Shown in pieces: positions 18 through 7,793 of a DNA stretch of 64,000 nt. Where the stretch lies: the NCBI GenBank assembly GCA_018268195.1, contig JAFDWZ010000026.1:64491-128490 (forward strand), written 5' to 3'. Under the pieces are notes generated by a model that did not search any database, was not told where the DNA came from, and saw only the letters and a program-made list of their open reading frames with translations. Position numbers and translations under genes: made by a program. This DNA is from Bacteroidota bacterium. Its GTDB lineage: Bacteria > Bacteroidota > Bacteroidia > AKYH767-A > OLB10. Every line of letters starts with the position of its first letter. Within the stretch, counting starts at the first letter, position 1.

Positions 18-725
18 ATGGCTATTACACAACACGATTGTATTACCTGCAGTGTACGAGCATGTTCAATTCTTAATGAATGTGACAAGGAAACACTTAA
101 AGCAATCAGTAATTTTAAACTCACTAAATTTCTGGCAAAAGGCAAAAGGCTTTTCTCTGAAGGCGAACCCGTAGAAGGAGTATGTTTTATAAAGAAAGGC
201 TTTCTTAAAGTAGAGCTGAATGGAAAACAAGACAGACCTTTAATTCTTAAAATTGCCGGAAAGGGAACGGTCCTTGGTTATCGTATTAATGCCAAACATT
301 CTGTACATACATGCTCTGCAATTGCTGTTTCCGATGTGCAATATTGCTATGTGCCTTATGAGTTATTCGATAAAATTACTTCAAAAAGTTCTGAATTAAG
401 ACATCAGGTCATTAACCTTTTTATAGATGAACTTGAACTGGTAAAGAAAAAAGCACTGACTCTTGCACACAAAACTGTAAGAGAAAAAGTAGCCGAATCT
501 ATTTTATTGCTTGCCGAAACATTTAATTGTGAAAAAGAAGAAAATGAAATTTACATCAATTTCTGCAGACAGGATATAGCTGATTTAATTGGCACTACCA
601 AGGAGCAGGTTTCAAAAGTTATTAAAGATTTTGAAAAGGAAAAATTGATTAAATGCACTGCAAAAAAATTTAGTTATCTGGATATTTTCCGTCTTAACGA
701 AATTGCATTTCCCAACGTTCAGTGA
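18..725 (+). CDS. Crp/Fnr family transcriptional regulator with an FNR-like N-terminal cysteine cluster
   Basis: 235 aa. N-terminus reads DCITCSVRACSILNEC (C-x2-C-x4-C plus a fourth Cys). Central cNMP-binding-like beta-roll (GEPVEGVCFIKKGFLKV). C-terminal HTH (RQDIADLIGTTKEQVSKVIKDFEKEKLI). Lies directly upstream of the oxidase operon on the same strand. Confidence 0.85.
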   Translation: MAITQHDCITCSVRACSILNECDKETLKAISNFKLTKFLAKGKRLFSEGEPVEGVCFIKKGFLKVELNGKQDRPLILKIAGKGTVLGYRINAKHSVHTCSAIAVSDVQYCYVPYELFDKITSKSSELRHQVINLFIDELELVKKKALTLAHKTVREKVAESILLLAETFNCEKEENEIYINFCRQDIADLIGTTKEQVSKVIKDFEKEKLIKCTAKKFSYLDIFRLNEIAFPNVQ

Positions 726-803
726 CATTAAAAATGCCTGTGTAGTTTTTCTCATTCAAAAAAAATACGAAAACGTAATTATTGCCTGCTTTAAATAGCA
801 CTC

Positions 804-1085: not shown

Positions 1086-2000
1086 ATGAGTTTACTCAGC
1101 CCGGTCGAAGGATGGTACTATAAAAAAGTCGCTAAAGATGAAAAGATGTGGATGATTATTGCACTTGTGCTATGTATCGTTCTTTTCATTTGGATGATTA
1201 TGTGGCACGTATATGGAAAACAAAATCCATCCAGCACAACTTACCGAACAAGTACAACAGAGTTTTCCAGGCTCACCGAAGCATACATCAAACAAAACAT
1301 GGTAGGAATGGACAATGGAATACCCATTGTAAAACCAGAGCCTAACACTGATATTTTTCTGATGGCAGAAATGTGGAGATGGAGCCCGGTACTTATTCTT
1401 CAAAAAGATCAGTCTTACAAATTTCATATTTCTTCAAAAGATCTCGTTCATGGTTTATCCATTCAACCGGTAAATATGAACTTTCAGGTCTATCCGGGTT
1501 ATGATTATCTGTTAGAATTTAAGCCAACCGAGTCCGGTGAGTATAAGGTCATCTGCAATGAGTTTTGCGGCATAGGTCATCATACCATGATTGGAAAAAT
1601 TGTGGTTATTGAAAAAGAAGAGGAATTAAAATCGTATGGCTTTGCAGATTTGAAAAAACCCGCAGGCCGCTCTGCAACTAAAAAGAATGAACCGCTTTCT
1701 GAAGCTGAGATGGCACTCATGGGTGAACAGGTATATACGCTCAAAGGTTGTGCTGCGTGTCATAAAACAGATGGCACTAGTATGATTGCTCCCGGTTGGA
1801 AAGGCTTGTATGGAAAAGAAGAGCATGTTATTGCCGATGGAAAAAAAATAACTGTAAGAGTTGATGATGACTATATAAGAGAGTCCATCAAGAATCCTTC
1901 TAATAAAATCACAGTAGGATACGAAAACACTCCTATGCCGGTAATGGGTTTAACCGATGAAGAAATTTCACAGGTTATTGCATATATAAAAACACTTTAA
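1086..2000 (+). CDS. Heme-copper oxidoreductase subunit II (CuA cupredoxin domain) fused to a C-terminal mono-heme cytochrome c domain
   Basis: N-terminal TM helix. CuA ligand set is intact: DLVHGLS and CNEFCGIGHHTM (H, C-x3-C-x3-H-x2-M). C-terminal CAACH heme c motif with a downstream MPVM. Confidence 0.9.
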   Translation: MSLLSPVEGWYYKKVAKDEKMWMIIALVLCIVLFIWMIMWHVYGKQNPSSTTYRTSTTEFSRLTEAYIKQNMVGMDNGIPIVKPEPNTDIFLMAEMWRWSPVLILQKDQSYKFHISSKDLVHGLSIQPVNMNFQVYPGYDYLLEFKPTESGEYKVICNEFCGIGHHTMIGKIVVIEKEEELKSYGFADLKKPAGRSATKKNEPLSEAEMALMGEQVYTLKGCAACHKTDGTSMIAPGWKGLYGKEEHVIADGKKITVRVDDDYIRESIKNPSNKITVGYENTPMPVMGLTDEEISQVIAYIKTL

Positions 2001-2033: not shown

Positions 2034-3701
2034 ATGTTTAGAACTTGCGACATCACAGGATTTAAAGTTGACCTTCAGTCAGAAAAACTTATAAGAGCTA
2101 ATGCAGTATTTGCAGTCATATCATTGCTTTTTGCTGTTGTAGCTGCCATACTGCTTGTTTTCACCCGATATCAGCCTGTGCATTTGCTCGGTGCTGAATG
2201 GTACTATCGTTTGGTAACCTTTCATGGATTGAATGCACTCATCTTCTGGATTATATTTTTTGAAATTGCCGGACTTTATTTCGGCTCTACGGTGATATTA
2301 AATACAAAGTTCTGTGCTCCTAAATGGGGATGGGTAGCTTTTGCGCTCATGGTAGCAGGATTAGTGATTTGTAATATCATAATTCTTATGGGTAAAGCAG
2401 ATGTTATGCTTACTTCCTACACTCCTCTCAAAGCACATCCGTTATATTACTTGGGTATTATTCTGTTTGCTGTGGGTGCATTGCTTGCTGTTATTTTATT
2501 TTTCGGTAATCTGATGATTGCAAGACGTGATAAAACTTATGGTGAAACAATGCCTCTGGTAACTTACGGGTTGATGACTGCTGCTATCATTGCAGTTATA
2601 ACACTTGCTTCAGGAGCGCTTATATATATTCCAACATTTCTTTGGTCGCTCGGTTTAGTAGAAAACATTGATCCTGCCATGTATAAACTTATCTGGTGGG
2701 GTCTGGGACATTCCTCTCAGCAGATAAATGTTGCTGCAATGGTTTCTATATGGTATATGGTATCATTCTTAACTGTAGGAGGTACTTCTATCAACGAAAG
2801 GGTATCACGTTCAGCATTTGTGTTGTATATTTTATTTATCTGTCTTGCATCAGCACACCACCTGCTTACCGACCCTGGAGTAAGCAGCGCATGGAAAGTA
2901 TGGAACACCAGTTATGCCATGTATCTTGCTGTTCTTGCATCAATGATTCATGCATTCGCAGTGCCGTCATCCTTCGAATCGGCACAACGCAGATGGGGTT
3001 TCAACAAAGGATTGTTTCAGTGGTTGTCAAAAGCGCCATGGAGTAATCCTGCATTTTCTTCCATCATTCTTGCTGTTATCGGTTTTGGTTTTATCGGTGG
3101 CACTACAGGGGTGATTTTCGGAATGGAACAAACCAATATCATTGTTCACAATACAATTGCTATTCCGGGACACTTCAAGGGTACCGTAGTTATCGGGACC
3201 ACTCTCACATTTATGGGTATCACCTACTATCTCATTCCACTCATATTTCGCAGAAAAATTGTGGGCTTCAAATGGGCACAATGGCAACCATGGTTATTTT
3301 TTATCGGTATAGCATTACTTTCAATTTCAATGATTGTTCTCGGACAACTTGGTGTTCCTCGCAGACATTGGGATTCTTCTTTCTCCGGTGGTCCATTTAC
3401 ATATAACTTTAACCCTGCTGTTGATTTCTTCTGGGCACTGATGATGCTGGGTGGAACCATTGCCTTCCTTGCTACTATCATCTGGATTTTAATCGTGGTA
3501 ATTTCCGTATTCTTTGGTCCCAAAGTTAACGGGCCACAGGATATGCAACTTAAAATTTCGCCACTGGCACCGGAAGCAAAAGAACATAAAGGGCTTGAAG
3601 CTCCCGGTACACTGGTGCTTACAATGATATTCCTACTGGTATTTATAGCGTTATTCTTCCTCAACTGGAAGTGGCTTGCTGCCACCTGGAACGTAAATTA
3701 A
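2034..3701 (+). CDS. Heme-copper oxidoreductase subunit I, B-family (ba3)-like but with non-canonical active-site positions
   Basis: 555 aa, polytopic. Blocks align with Thermus ba3 CbaA as I recall it: VTFHGLNALIF, TSYTPLKAHPLYYLG, MPLVTYG, WSLGLVENIDP, WWGLGHSSQQ (versus WWTGHPIVY), SAHHLLTDPG, LSKAPWSNPAF, VHNTIAIPGHFKG (versus VHNTAWVPGHFHL). Confidence 0.9.
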   Translation: MFRTCDITGFKVDLQSEKLIRANAVFAVISLLFAVVAAILLVFTRYQPVHLLGAEWYYRLVTFHGLNALIFWIIFFEIAGLYFGSTVILNTKFCAPKWGWVAFALMVAGLVICNIIILMGKADVMLTSYTPLKAHPLYYLGIILFAVGALLAVILFFGNLMIARRDKTYGETMPLVTYGLMTAAIIAVITLASGALIYIPTFLWSLGLVENIDPAMYKLIWWGLGHSSQQINVAAMVSIWYMVSFLTVGGTSINERVSRSAFVLYILFICLASAHHLLTDPGVSSAWKVWNTSYAMYLAVLASMIHAFAVPSSFESAQRRWGFNKGLFQWLSKAPWSNPAFSSIILAVIGFGFIGGTTGVIFGMEQTNIIVHNTIAIPGHFKGTVVIGTTLTFMGITYYLIPLIFRRKIVGFKWAQWQPWLFFIGIALLSISMIVLGQLGVPRRHWDSSFSGGPFTYNFNPAVDFFWALMMLGGTIAFLATIIWILIVVISVFFGPKVNGPQDMQLKISPLAPEAKEHKGLEAPGTLVLTMIFLLVFIALFFLNWKWLAATWNVN

Positions 3702-3781
3702 CCGGGCTAACCTTCATGTTGAATATGGTGCATGAATATTTTTTTCATGCATGCAGAAAAGTTTATTTAATAGGAGATAAT

Positions 3782-4528
3782 ATGCGATATGTAGTAATAT
3801 TGGTTTTGCCTCTATGGATTTTGTTATGCGGATTTAATTTCCCTGATGAAAAAAAACATCTCGCACAAAAAGTTGCCGATATTACGGTGACGGATGCAAA
3901 CGGAAATTCTTACAAACTTTACTCGTTGCTGCGCAACAAACCGCTTATCATCTCACCGGTTTATACCCGATGTTATTCAACATGTGCCATTGTAAGTAAT
4001 GGCGTTCAGGCAGTAGTTAATCAACTTGGCACTTTGGGAAAAGACTTTAACATGCTCAGCTTTTCCTTCGATACTGCCGACAAAGCTGAAGATCTTACCA
4101 TTTATGAACTGCGATGGAAGATGGATGGAAATAACTGGCGAACTGTAACTGCATCTGATGCTGAAATAAAAAAGTTATTGACATCCATCGGATACGAGTA
4201 CGACTACAATGCCTCCACCCAACAGTATAATCATCCTTCCATATTGGTGGTTCTAACACCCAGCGGTAAAATATCAAGATACATATATGGTATTAATCCT
4301 TCAAAGAAAGATGTAAACTTAGCAGTGATAGAAGCTGCTGCAGAACAGTCAAGGCCGGGATTAATTCAGGGGTTTTATCTCCGTTGTTTTGGTTACGACC
4401 CCATATTAAAAACCTACAAAATGGATTGGCGATTTATTATTTCCACTTCTGCAGGACTATTGATGATATCCTTGGTAAGTGGAATTTTTATACGATCTTT
4501 TATTATTTCAAAACACCATGACGGATAA
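3782..4528 (+). CDS. SCO1/SenC family copper chaperone (thioredoxin fold), membrane anchored
   Basis: CxxxC motif (RCYSTC, nt 3971-3985) and a downstream conserved His context (YNHPSILVVLTPSGKISRYIYG). N-terminal signal/anchor and a C-terminal TM. Start moved to ATG 3782 (MRYVVILVLPLW), which is preceded by aggag. Confidence 0.8.
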   Translation: MRYVVILVLPLWILLCGFNFPDEKKHLAQKVADITVTDANGNSYKLYSLLRNKPLIISPVYTRCYSTCAIVSNGVQAVVNQLGTLGKDFNMLSFSFDTADKAEDLTIYELRWKMDGNNWRTVTASDAEIKKLLTSIGYEYDYNASTQQYNHPSILVVLTPSGKISRYIYGINPSKKDVNLAVIEAAAEQSRPGLIQGFYLRCFGYDPILKTYKMDWRFIISTSAGLLMISLVSGIFIRSFIISKHHDG

Positions 4529-6467
4529 CATTAAAGAACAGCCGGCCCGCAAAGAACGAACGTATGGACATCAATTGTTTCAGAAATTTTCTTCCTTCTT
4601 CGGAAAAATATATTCTACCGATTTAAATCCTTTATACAACCTGGGCGGCATTGCCGTACTAATGTTTACCATTGCCTGTATTTCCGGCATATATATTTTT
4701 ATTTTTTACAATATCAATCCACGCGATGCCTGGGATTCAGTAGAGGCTATGTCAAACAACACTTTTAACGGATGGATGAGAACTATTCATCGTTACTCTT
4801 CTGATTTACTGGTGATTTTCATTTTGCTTCACTTGCTCCACACTTTGTTTACTTCAAAGTTTAAACGTCTTGTATCATGGATCAGTGGAATAATTTCCTT
4901 TTTAGTGGTAGTGATTATCGGTGTTACCGGCTTCATGCTTGTGTGGGATCAAAAAGCAAAACTTGCAGGATATCTTACTGCAAAACTTTTTTCCAGTCTT
5001 CCCATTTTCGACCCATCCATTGCGGGAGCATTTCTGCTCAACGACCTTAACACTGTTGGCGGATTTTTCAAAGTTGCATTATTTGGCCATATAGTTTTTT
5101 CGTTGGTAACAGTAATCATTATCTGGATTCATCTTCTTCGTATTTCCAAACCCAAATTATTTCCTCCTAAAAAACTGATCATTTACATCATCATCGCATT
5201 GGGAATTATTTCAATTGCAATACCGGTAAAAAGCGATCCACCGGCTCAGATGTCAAACCTGCCTATTCAAACTACATTCGACTGGTACTATTTTTTCGGA
5301 TACTATCTGATGAAATTGTTTACCGTTAATCAGAATTGGTTCATATTAACCGGTTCAGGAATCATACTGTGCATTATTCCTTATCTTATCAAAAGAAAAA
5401 ATAATCCACCCGTTTATATTGATCTCGACAAATGTGATGCTTGTAATCTCTGCTCCTATGACTGCCCCTATGAAGCCATTGATATGCTTCCACACAATGG
5501 CGCAAGAAAAGCCATTCTCTCACCTGACAAGTGTGTAGGTTGTGGTATCTGTATTGGCTCTTGTGCAGAGCATGCCATCAGTCACCCAATATACCCTGAG
5601 TTAATACTGCAGCAACGCAAGAAATCTGATTTGGCTGTATTCAGTTGCAGTTACTTTCCGGAGCCTGAATGGCCTTCAGGATTAGACATAGTACATTACA
5701 GAGTGCCTTGCACAGGGAGTGTTATGCCGAAGGATGTACAGCAAATGCTGGACAACAACTCCGAAAAAGTTGCTATTCTCGGTTGTGAAGATTGCTATTA
5801 TCGTCTGGGCAAAAACTGGACTATAAACCGTTTTCTGCGCAAAAGACCACCCACTTTTTCAAAGAAATTTGATGCTTCAAAAGTCAAAATGTTTACACTT
5901 ACTCAATACAATAAAGATAAACTTTTAGCATTTTCAAAGGAAGCTTCATCTGCCGATATAAGAACAGGAACATTAGGCGTTGATGACCACCAAAAAAGCA
6001 ATCCTATTCTTTCTACATTAATTCTTATAGTATTCTTTTCGCTGATGATTCCGTTCAGTAATACTACCGTTCATTTTTTCAACCCACAGGAAAAAACACT
6101 TATCGTAAACTTTAAATATATTTCTACTCCGCAAGAGTACGAACAAGTAAATACCGGAGCAGCACACATGAGGGCACTCAACCCTGTGGTTAAGAAAAGA
6201 AGTCCGGTGAAACTTACAATCTATTCAGCAAACAACAGCCGGTTGCTGTTTGAAAAAGAATTTTCTCCTCGTGGTCTTCGGCATGATATTGCAATGTTTA
6301 TTTATACACAGCTGAATATTGAAGCTGACAGTGTAAATGTGGATATAACAGAAACAGCCTTCCCCGACAAACATTACGAAATTAAAAATGTACATTTGAA
6401 AAAAGGCGATGGCACTTTTGTAATTTTTAAAGATGATAAACTGCAGGTCGCAGGAAAAAATGAATAG
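4518..6467 (+). CDS. Fusion protein: diheme cytochrome b (bc1/b6-type N-terminal domain), 2x[4Fe-4S] ferredoxin, MvhD/FlpD-like domain, TM helix and an uncharacterised C-terminal domain
   Basis: Two His pairs, each 14 residues apart on predicted helices: codons 4788/4830 (RTIHRY...LLH) and 5088/5130 (FGHIVF...WIH). CDACNLCSYDCP at 5433-5468 and CVGCGICIGSC at 5532-5564. MvhD-like Cys pattern (FSCSYF...VPCTGSV...ILGCEDCYY, about 5631-5830). Late TM helix (ILSTLILIVFFSLMIPF) followed by about 150 aa. Start at ATG 4518 overlaps the SCO gene end by 11 nt. Confidence 0.8.
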   Translation: MTDNIKEQPARKERTYGHQLFQKFSSFFGKIYSTDLNPLYNLGGIAVLMFTIACISGIYIFIFYNINPRDAWDSVEAMSNNTFNGWMRTIHRYSSDLLVIFILLHLLHTLFTSKFKRLVSWISGIISFLVVVIIGVTGFMLVWDQKAKLAGYLTAKLFSSLPIFDPSIAGAFLLNDLNTVGGFFKVALFGHIVFSLVTVIIIWIHLLRISKPKLFPPKKLIIYIIIALGIISIAIPVKSDPPAQMSNLPIQTTFDWYYFFGYYLMKLFTVNQNWFILTGSGIILCIIPYLIKRKNNPPVYIDLDKCDACNLCSYDCPYEAIDMLPHNGARKAILSPDKCVGCGICIGSCAEHAISHPIYPELILQQRKKSDLAVFSCSYFPEPEWPSGLDIVHYRVPCTGSVMPKDVQQMLDNNSEKVAILGCEDCYYRLGKNWTINRFLRKRPPTFSKKFDASKVKMFTLTQYNKDKLLAFSKEASSADIRTGTLGVDDHQKSNPILSTLILIVFFSLMIPFSNTTVHFFNPQEKTLIVNFKYISTPQEYEQVNTGAAHMRALNPVVKKRSPVKLTIYSANNSRLLFEKEFSPRGLRHDIAMFIYTQLNIEADSVNVDITETAFPDKHYEIKNVHLKKGDGTFVIFKDDKLQVAGKNE

Positions 6468-6470
6468 CCT

Positions 6471-7148
6471 CTATTTAAAAAGTTCAAGCACCTTGATTCC
6501 GGTTACTGCAATCTGAAGTCCGACACAAAATATGAGAAAAGCCATTATTCTGTTAATGTAAGTTTCGGTATGAGAGCCAAGGTATTGAAGTATCGTTTTT
6601 GTTTTCAGGTAAAAAACATAAATTAAAATGCACATGATAGTGATAGCTGTAAGAATTGCAGCAGTGTTTATCAAATAACTTACGGTGCTGGCATTTTCGC
6701 TGTGCGCGCCCAGTGTAAACAGCACCGATATAACACCTGCACCCGCAGTGATGGGAAAAGTAAGTGGGTAAAATAATTGATTCCGCAAGTTATCCAATCC
6801 TGTACCTGAAGCGGTATTTTCCTTCACTGCATCCTCAACACTTTCGCCACTTCCTGTGGTAAGTGAGTCCCATCCAATTTTGCATATCATAATACCTCCT
6901 GCCAGTTGAATAACAGGGATGGAAATTCCGAATAGCTCAAGAATCCAGTGGCCGGCAAATAACACTATTGAGCATAAGATAAAAACGTACAACACGATTT
7001 TTTTTACTGCTGTGCGCTTGGCTGCTTTATCCAGACCATCCATATAAGGGCTTACTATGAATGCTGAACCAACCGGGTTGATTACCGGAAACAGTGCTAC
7101 TGTACTCAGAAAAAGTAAATGCAGAAAGGAGTGTAAATTTTCATTCAT
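6471..7148 (-). CDS. MarC family (UPF0056) integral membrane protein
   Basis: 225 aa, multi-TM, with the NPVGSAFIV-type N-terminal motif typical of MarC/UPF0056 proteins. Confidence 0.75.
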   Translation of the reverse strand: MNENLHSFLHLLFLSTVALFPVINPVGSAFIVSPYMDGLDKAAKRTAVKKIVLYVFILCSIVLFAGHWILELFGISIPVIQLAGGIMICKIGWDSLTTGSGESVEDAVKENTASGTGLDNLRNQLFYPLTFPITAGAGVISVLFTLGAHSENASTVSYLINTAAILTAITIMCILIYVFYLKTKTILQYLGSHTETYINRIMAFLIFCVGLQIAVTGIKVLELFK

Positions 7149-7424: not shown

Positions 7425-7793
7425 ATGAAATTACTTTTTCCTTCTCTTGTACTGATTTTACTCGCAACTGGCGGATATAGTCAGGTTGCTAAATCCCTCA
7501 GTAAAAAACCTGATCCTGCTAAAGAACTTATGTTAGTTGAAGCTTCCTGTGGTGAATGTAGTTATGGTATGCCCGGCAAAGATTGCGACCTTGCAGTAAA
7601 AATTAAAGACAGCACTTATTTTGTTGACGGTGTGAGCATTTATGAATTCGGTCATCCCCATGATGCTAATGGTTTTTGTATTGCAATTCGTCATGCCGAA
7701 GTACAAGGCGAAGTAGTAAACGGACGATTTAAGGCAAGTTACTTCAAATTACTGAAGGAGGACGAGCAAAATAATAAAGCTAAAGAAAACTGA
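7425..7793 (+). CDS. Hypothetical secreted protein, small and Cys-containing
   Basis: Signal peptide (MKLLFPSLVLILLATGGYSQ). CGEC plus two further Cys. Lys/Glu-rich tail. I cannot confidently assign a family. Confidence 0.55.
   Translation: MKLLFPSLVLILLATGGYSQVAKSLSKKPDPAKELMLVEASCGECSYGMPGKDCDLAVKIKDSTYFVDGVSIYEFGHPHDANGFCIAIRHAEVQGEVVNGRFKASYFKLLKEDEQNNKAKEN

Follow-up and report, generated by a model that had tools for sequence, protein, structure and literature searches.

A 64,000-nucleotide stretch of DNA from a Bacteroidota bacterium (NCBI GenBank assembly GCA_018268195.1, contig JAFDWZ010000026.1, positions 64,491 to 128,490 of the forward strand; hereafter the window) raises the question of what a heme-copper enzyme can do when its subunit I bears glutamine at the position of the cross-linked active-site tyrosine and lysine at the position of the second histidine ligand of the low-spin heme. 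Both residues had been flagged in a first-pass annotation of the gene at positions 2034–3701. Both are real, conserved, and functionally meaningful, and both have already been described in the literature for the eNOR family of nitric oxide (NO) reductases, of which the protein is an uncharacterised member. Judging from its sequence, its relatives, and their gene neighborhoods, we consider it probable that the gene encodes subunit I of an eNOR-family NO reductase from a lysine-bearing subclade, in which the low-spin heme is most likely ligated by a His/Lys pair.

The two residues can be read directly from the DNA. The helix VI motif WWGLGHSSQQ is as quoted in the first pass, although nt 2700–2723, to which it had been assigned, begin at G223 with the first Trp lying earlier, a trivial offset; H226 is encoded by cat (2709–2711) and Q229-Q230 by cag cag (2718–2723). 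H380-F-K382-G reads cac ttc aag ggt, and the first three of these codons span 3171–3179. The remaining five metal-ligand histidines are all intact in subunit I, and those named beforehand, i.e., the CuB ligand H226, the pair in SAH275H276, and the first low-spin heme ligand in VTFH64G, are all found in the DNA. An HMMER alignment with subunit I of the Thermus thermophilus ba3 oxidase (E = 3e-46) is gapless around both motifs: wwglGHssqQ lies over fwwtGHpivY, which places Q230 at ba3 Tyr237, the cross-linked tyrosine, and HNTIAIPGHFKG lies over HNTAWVPGHFHL of ba3, which places K382 at ba3 His386. The same alignment bears out the proposal that the equivalent of ba3 Y244 is a valine (V237). At the other K-path columns, invariant residues match Y248 (Y241) and S309 (S303), A309 stands at T315, and an invariant histidine, H306, stands at T312. 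No tyrosine stands at a position competent for cross-linking: of the two candidates that had been named, Y241 is the K-path equivalent of ba3 Y248, and Y265 sits 10 residues before H275 and is also kept in relatives that bear the cross-link tyrosine. An AlphaFold2 model built from 63 homologs (pLDDT 89.2, pTM 0.90) had ba3 oxidases as its top Foldseek matches in the PDB (TM-score ~0.78), and neither the sequence search nor the Foldseek search of the PDB found a solved structure closer than ba3.

Glutamine at the cross-linked tyrosine column is diagnostic for eNOR subunit I (PMC8756737) and has been described in eNOR since Hemp & Gennis 2008, as cited in PMC8756737. The family became known first from haloarchaea and later from Chloroflexi and Proteobacteria, and 547 eNOR genomes have been counted in GTDB (PMC11214002). 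The enzyme purified from Rhodothermus marinus (Murali et al. 2024, PMC11214002) turns over NO at a kcat of about 0.7 per second (25 °C) but has no O2 reductase activity; one sentence of the same paper states that "some eNORs" have a His/Lys low-spin heme. The usual eNOR operon consists of subunit II, subunit I, heme O synthase, and sco1, with cytochrome b/FeS genes close by (Ferrigenium preprint 10.64898/2026.01.22.701106). The protein in the window is a B-family-related heme-copper enzyme with Gln at the Tyr column, three active-site His plus the high-spin heme His, and a CuA-bearing subunit II encoded alongside. Of a putative K-channel-like path, Y241 and S303 are invariant, with H306, V237, and A309 at the T312, Y244, and T315 columns. 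The gene order subunit II, subunit I, SCO1 in the window, to which UbiA is added in relatives, matches the Ferrigenium eNOR operon. The earlier suggestion of an NO-reductase-type relative that does not reduce O2 agrees with the Gln diagnostic (PMC8756737), with the behavior of the R. marinus enzyme (PMC11214002), and with gene context. The accompanying statement that a His-to-Lys replacement would be very unusual holds as far as rarity is concerned, but the replacement is not new, as Murali et al. 2024 already mention a His/Lys low-spin heme. NCBIfam has no eNOR-specific model, and all hits to its models fall below cut-off; the source databases label most homologs "cbb3-type cytochrome c oxidase subunit I".

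Homologs were gathered with a word-indexed search, which returned hundreds of close homologs, and with a scan of GTDB species genomes, which returned at least 600 matching stretches and 596 confirmed relatives, a number of the same order as the 547 published eNOR genomes. The scan kept the best 80 of these at least 596 matches. Conservation was assessed in 85 related loci from more than ten phyla. H226, Q229, Q230, H275, H276, and H380 are invariant in all 85 loci, and so is H64 in the 84 that extend over its position. Position 382 is Lys in 26 of the 85 loci, always followed by Gly (G383), and His in 59. The Lys loci come from Chitinophagales and other Bacteroidota, Aquificota including Hydrogenobacter thermophilus, some Nitrospirota, and bacterium HR21, and the His loci from Gemmatimonadota, Acidobacteriota, Bdellovibrionota, Myxococcota, Proteobacteria, and others. 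Close homologs keep both the Gln and the Lys; the top match among those listed, in the metagenome-assembled genome (MAG) "Bacteroidetes bacterium OLB10", is 98% identical, which identifies the source of the window as a Chitinophagales-like bacterium. With the window included, the Lys codon is AAA in 20 cases and AAG in 7, and a change from a His codon (CAY) to AAR takes two substitutions. Of the GTDB species genomes that matched, at least 596 in number, 22 (~4%) have the Lys variant.

The history of the two substitutions was traced in a neighbor-joining tree of 98 full-length sequences (L-INS-i alignment, 100 bootstraps), which replaced an initial MAFFT alignment of 270 sequences in which the GHxxQQ column was misplaced for distant B-family sequences. 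Rhodothermus and Magnetospirillum fall outside the best 80 of the at least 596 matches, and the eNORs of R. marinus and M. magnetotacticum are not among the sequences in the tree. The Gln-bearing sequences, including the haloarchaeal eNOR-type protein of Natrarchaeobius (P0125), are monophyletic in 99 of 100 bootstraps. Their sister group consists of Tyr-bearing archaeal enzymes from Hodarchaeales and Thermoproteota with the motif GHxxQY (P0124, P0127, P0128, P0140), and B-family sequences farther out carry Tyr at the first column and His at the second. All 100 bootstraps recover the Lys-bearing sequences as one clade, which is nested within His-bearing bacterial sequences. Because both clades are monophyletic and the Lys clade is nested, the tree indicates that the tyrosine was lost once, at the base of the Gln clade, and that His-to-Lys arose once inside it. 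The fixed differences of the Lys clade from the His clade include M68A, V80G, and A84G in helix II, T364M, I367T, Y420W, and A436L; none of the Lys-clade-specific positions has gained a His. The changes cluster on helix II beside H64, with M68A one helical turn past it, and M68A, V80G, and A84G together with G383 look like a coordinated remodeling of the H64 heme pocket to accept a lysine.

Gene context in the relatives agrees with a predicted role in NO reduction. In Hydrogenobacter thermophilus, a 68%-identical Lys-type gene lies between nosZ-nosL-nosD-nosF-nosY and two nirS genes with heme d1 biosynthesis genes, and the operon of a Bacteroidetes relative contains a UbiA-type heme O synthase and is itself followed by nirS. 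Several other loci have nirS close by, and UbiA adjoins the orthologs at loci L004 and L028. As a separate observation, a second, shorter COX1-like gene that is not present in the window directly follows subunit I at L001 (11668–12936, 422 amino acids (aa)) and L021–L024. The loci with this second protein belong to Lys-clade Hydrogenobacter, Cyclobacteriaceae, and a Nitrospirae MAG, and the protein may be the "eNOR scaffold protein" of the Ferrigenium preprint.

Among the competing explanations, the one that survives best accepts an eNOR-type enzyme but takes K382 off the iron, so that the H64 heme would be five-coordinate or high-spin, or ligated by water or another residue such as Met, with K382 acting as a protonated charge. 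We regard this as unlikely. A lysine amine needs deprotonation to ligate iron, and lysine has a longer side chain than histidine; yet K382 stands exactly in the ligand column without an insertion or deletion relative to ba3, it is strictly invariant in its clade and always accompanied by G383, and the space-making changes M68A, V80G, and A84G, one or more turns from H64, look like the accommodation of a ligand. A methionine ligand has a precedent in the His/Met ligation of nNOR (Murali et al. 2024), the Lys clade has gained a Met (T364M), and M394 is invariant. However, residue 364 lies in the helix IX-X loop of the AlphaFold2 model, off the axial face, and M394 is just as invariant in the His clade. 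Binding of the iron by K382 is also the published reading (Murali et al. 2024), which its exact position, its strict invariance, and the changes in the pocket support. His/Lys hemes, such as those of alkaline cytochrome c and of Met-to-Lys cytochrome c variants, are low-spin, with potentials usually well below those of His/Met hemes; relative to bis-His ligation, the shift could go in either direction.

Some observations weigh against the eNOR assignment as a whole. Membership of the family is drawn from the Gln diagnostic, from a neighbor-joining tree with a haloarchaeal eNOR-type sequence, and from operon similarity, and the members of the Lys clade are known as sequences. In addition, a Pfam scan of 33 further open reading frames (ORFs) in the window, 5 of them in the first 9 kb and the other 28 drawn from the 42 farther on that reach 150 aa, detected none of the genes nir, nos, ctaA, and ctaB. 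A Gln-bearing enzyme with another substrate or role, whether residual O2 reduction, N2O or another N-oxide, NO dismutation, or a function linked to the cytochrome b-FeS protein encoded nearby, is on balance improbable, and more so than a non-ligating K382. The single eNOR that has been assayed is a His-type enzyme from another clade, the scanned ORFs provide neither a nir nor a nos partner, and the almost universal cytochrome b-FeS-FlpD partner is without an assigned function. Against this, the three His and Q229-Q230 are identical in the Lys clade, the His clade, and the haloarchaeal eNOR-type sequence, nirS and nos genes neighbor subunit I in several lineages, and the loss of the Tyr cofactor speaks against O2 reduction (Murali et al. 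2024). An artefact, whether from faulty sequencing, a mutation peculiar to the strain, or pseudogene decay, can be dismissed with near certainty, since the 555-aa reading frame is intact and the gene recurs at 98% identity in the OLB10 MAG, K382 occurs in 26 independent loci with AAA or AAG codons, each differing from a His codon by two substitutions, and Q230 is invariant throughout the 85 loci.

As an eNOR, the enzyme would catalyze 2 NO + 2 e− + 2 H+ → N2O + H2O. The eNOR enzymes derive from the B family and have lost the His-Tyr cofactor required for four-electron O2 reduction, in whose place Q230 stands here; Gln229/Gln230 could replace the Tyr because two-electron NO reduction presumably needs no radical cofactor. 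Electrons are predicted to pass from the cytochrome c domain on subunit II to CuA, from there to the six-coordinate heme on H64/K382, and then to the binuclear site formed by the high-spin heme on H380 and a metal (Cu or Fe) on H226, H275, and H276, whereas protons would probably arrive via the K-channel-like path of Y241, S303, and H306. In the Lys subclade, the low-spin heme would most likely be His/Lys-ligated, with an altered midpoint potential. The ORFs scanned in the window include no nir or nos genes; in this bacterium the enzyme could act in NO detoxification instead of respiration, or in partial denitrification.

The features of the operon and of subunit I are compiled in the table below.

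Features of the eNOR-type locus, with positions in the window
Feature	Position	Strand	Basis or remark
Crp/Fnr-family regulator, directly upstream of the operon	18–725	+	Pfam cNMP_binding and HTH_Crp_2
Palindrome TACGAAAACGTA (TACG-N4-CGTA), candidate operator	766–777		Conserved in relatives
Small membrane protein, 63 aa, single helix	870–1061	+	Precedes subunit II
Subunit II: one transmembrane helix, CuA cupredoxin, fused C-terminal cytochrome c (CAACH)	1086–2000	+	Pfam COX2 and Cytochrom_C
Subunit I, probable eNOR-type heme-copper NO reductase	2034–3701	+	555 aa; Pfam COX1, E = 1e-64 over the whole length
H64 (VTFHG), helix II, first axial ligand of the low-spin heme	2223–2225	+	Aligns with the helix II heme-ligand His of ba3
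W221-W222-G-L-G-H226-S-S-Q229-Q230	2694–2723	+	Codons read from DNA
H226-S-S-Q229-Q230: active-site metal His, Gln at the cross-linked Tyr position	2709–2723	+	Alignment with ba3 GHPIVY
H275-H276 (SAHH), helix VII, second and third active-site metal ligands	2856–2861	+	Invariant
H380-F-K382-G383: high-spin heme His, Lys at the second low-spin heme His position	3171–3182	+	Alignment with ba3 HFHL
SCO1/SenC copper chaperone, presumably for CuA assembly	3671–4528	+	Pfam SCO1-SenC; true start probably downstream of 3671
Membrane protein, 662 aa, with cytochrome b (petB-like), two [4Fe-4S] motifs, and an FlpD/MvhD-like domain	4479–6467	+	Pfam Cytochrome_B, Fer4, FlpD

The neighboring Fnr-like regulator probably activates the operon when oxygen is low. 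Low-oxygen control is suggested because the regulator carries an N-terminal Cys cluster (C8-x2-C11-x4-C16) reminiscent of the oxygen-sensing [4Fe-4S] cluster of Fnr; its best NCBIfam match is Fnr (3e-21), under the family cut-off. A Crp-type gene occupies the same place in most of the loci L006–L015 and in L018, L004, and L028. The perfect palindrome TACGAAAACGTA, about 100 bp upstream of the first ORF of the operon, is a candidate binding site for this regulator: an alignment of the intergenic regions of six related loci of the Chitinophagales type shows it unchanged in all of them, and it occurs in the corresponding region of L028 as well and is present in two copies in the window with 0.23 expected, while its 4-N4-4 symmetry is combined with a sequence unlike that of the E. 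coli Fnr box. A search upstream of the operon for the canonical Fnr box, TTGAT-N4-ATCAA, gave no excess over chance, with 75 matches where 81 would be expected. A second palindrome, TGACATTTGTCA (804–815, 0.05 expected in the window), was dropped as an operator; it is not conserved even in the 98%-identical locus L006 and is probably fortuitous.

The 63-aa protein has no family match in Pfam or NCBIfam, but ORFs of 53–63 aa precede subunit II in L001, L003, L004, and L005, and tblastn detects the protein in the Lys-clade loci. It is possibly analogous to subunit IIa of ba3, because subunit II has a single transmembrane helix, as in ba3. In subunit II, the CuA motif CNEFCGIGHHTM is intact (H122 and C157-x-E-x-C161-G-x-x-H165-x-x-M168), as it is in 84 of 84 orthologs. 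The cytochrome c fusion (residues about 210–304) is restricted to 13 Chitinophagales-type loci, whereas in the other Lys-clade loci and all His-clade loci subunit II has about 180–200 aa and lacks the cytochrome c domain. SCO1/SenC is encoded downstream of subunit I in all Lys-clade loci and, by Pfam, in the one His-clade locus that was checked; among other His-clade loci, tblastn detects it in only a minority.

The cytochrome b-FeS-FlpD gene, whose product has two CxxCxxCxxxC motifs, was detected by tblastn beside the gene for the Gln-type subunit I in nearly all of the 85 loci, which span more than ten phyla, and can lie on either strand; the presence of such genes beside eNOR has been mentioned in one preprint only (Ferrigenium, 10.64898/2026.01.22.701106). 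Its product is a conserved partner for which a subunit, a quinone-linked electron module, and a maturation factor are candidate roles. A more far-reaching interpretation, which we offer as a tentative one, is that the Lys subclade goes back to one ancient re-engineering of the electron-transfer heme site, which would make this the first heme-copper enzyme whose axial ligands are truly a His/Lys pair, with a shifted heme potential or a different heme bound, and that the cytochrome b/two-[4Fe-4S]/FlpD-like partner would be an unrecognized electron-input or energy-coupling module for NO respiration. The downstream flank encodes a MarC-family membrane protein (6471–7148, minus strand) and a DUF6370 protein with a signal-peptide-like N-terminus (7425–7793, plus strand).

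No new category of system is opened by these results. What is added here is that the Lys variant forms a single monophyletic subclade with co-substitutions next to H64, that this subclade includes the Hydrogenobacter thermophilus gene between nos and nirS, and that a cytochrome b-FeS-FlpD gene is almost universally linked to eNOR. Enzymes of the eNOR type are routinely mis-annotated as cytochrome c oxidases, and the N2O-producing capacity of wastewater and soil Bacteroidota is therefore under-counted. In the Lys subclade, nature has run an experiment on how the electron-transfer heme of a heme-copper enzyme can be tuned, and since the subclade includes the cultivable and genetically well-known Hydrogenobacter thermophilus, the question of His/Lys ligation is directly testable.

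In cNOR, the H+4 position of helix VI is held by the Glu that ligates FeB. The enzyme in the window and cNOR/qNOR presumably catalyze the same reaction, and both lack the cross-linked Tyr; however, in cNOR and qNOR a Glu is the fourth ligand of FeB, CuA and a conserved proton channel are both absent, and the kinship is with cbb3. They are ruled out by the Gln at H+4, the presence of CuA, and the B-family ba3-related enzymes as closest relatives. The nNOR of Murali et al. 2024 is likewise a putative, B-family-derived NO reductase that has exchanged the second axial His of its low-spin heme, but for Met rather than Lys, and it belongs to another clade with a cNOR-like active site; Lys at 382 and Gln at H+4 rule it out. 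The gNOR described in the same paper, in which one active-site His is replaced by Asp, is ruled out by the presence of all three His, and placement in the Gln (eNOR) clade argues against membership in sNOR or bNOR.

The closest solved structure is that of the B-family O2 reductase of Thermus thermophilus, ba3 (PDB 1EHK/3S8F), whose helices are arranged and ligands spaced in the same way. Common to both are a CuA subunit II that crosses the membrane once, possibly a small IIa-like subunit, and the residues Y248 and S309, whose equivalents are kept. The window protein differs in that Tyr237 is replaced by Gln, which leaves no His-Tyr cofactor, His386 by Lys, Y244 by Val, T312 by His, and T315 by Ala. 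An O2 reductase of the ba3 type was rejected, the motif being GHSSQQ and not the cross-link motif GHPxVY, with the Tyr-bearing relatives forming a sister group.

The described eNOR carries a modified heme a (heme As) in both sites; neither ctaA nor ctaB is found in the scanned ORFs of the window. The window protein further differs from known eNORs in its ~36–39% identity to the haloarchaeal eNOR-type sequence, in the cytochrome c domain on subunit II, and in belonging to the Lys subclade. With eNOR it nevertheless shares the B-family origin, the Gln in place of Tyr, the three active-site His and the high-spin heme His, CuA, SCO1, the heme O synthase in the operons of relatives, and, for "some eNORs", the probable His/Lys heme itself.

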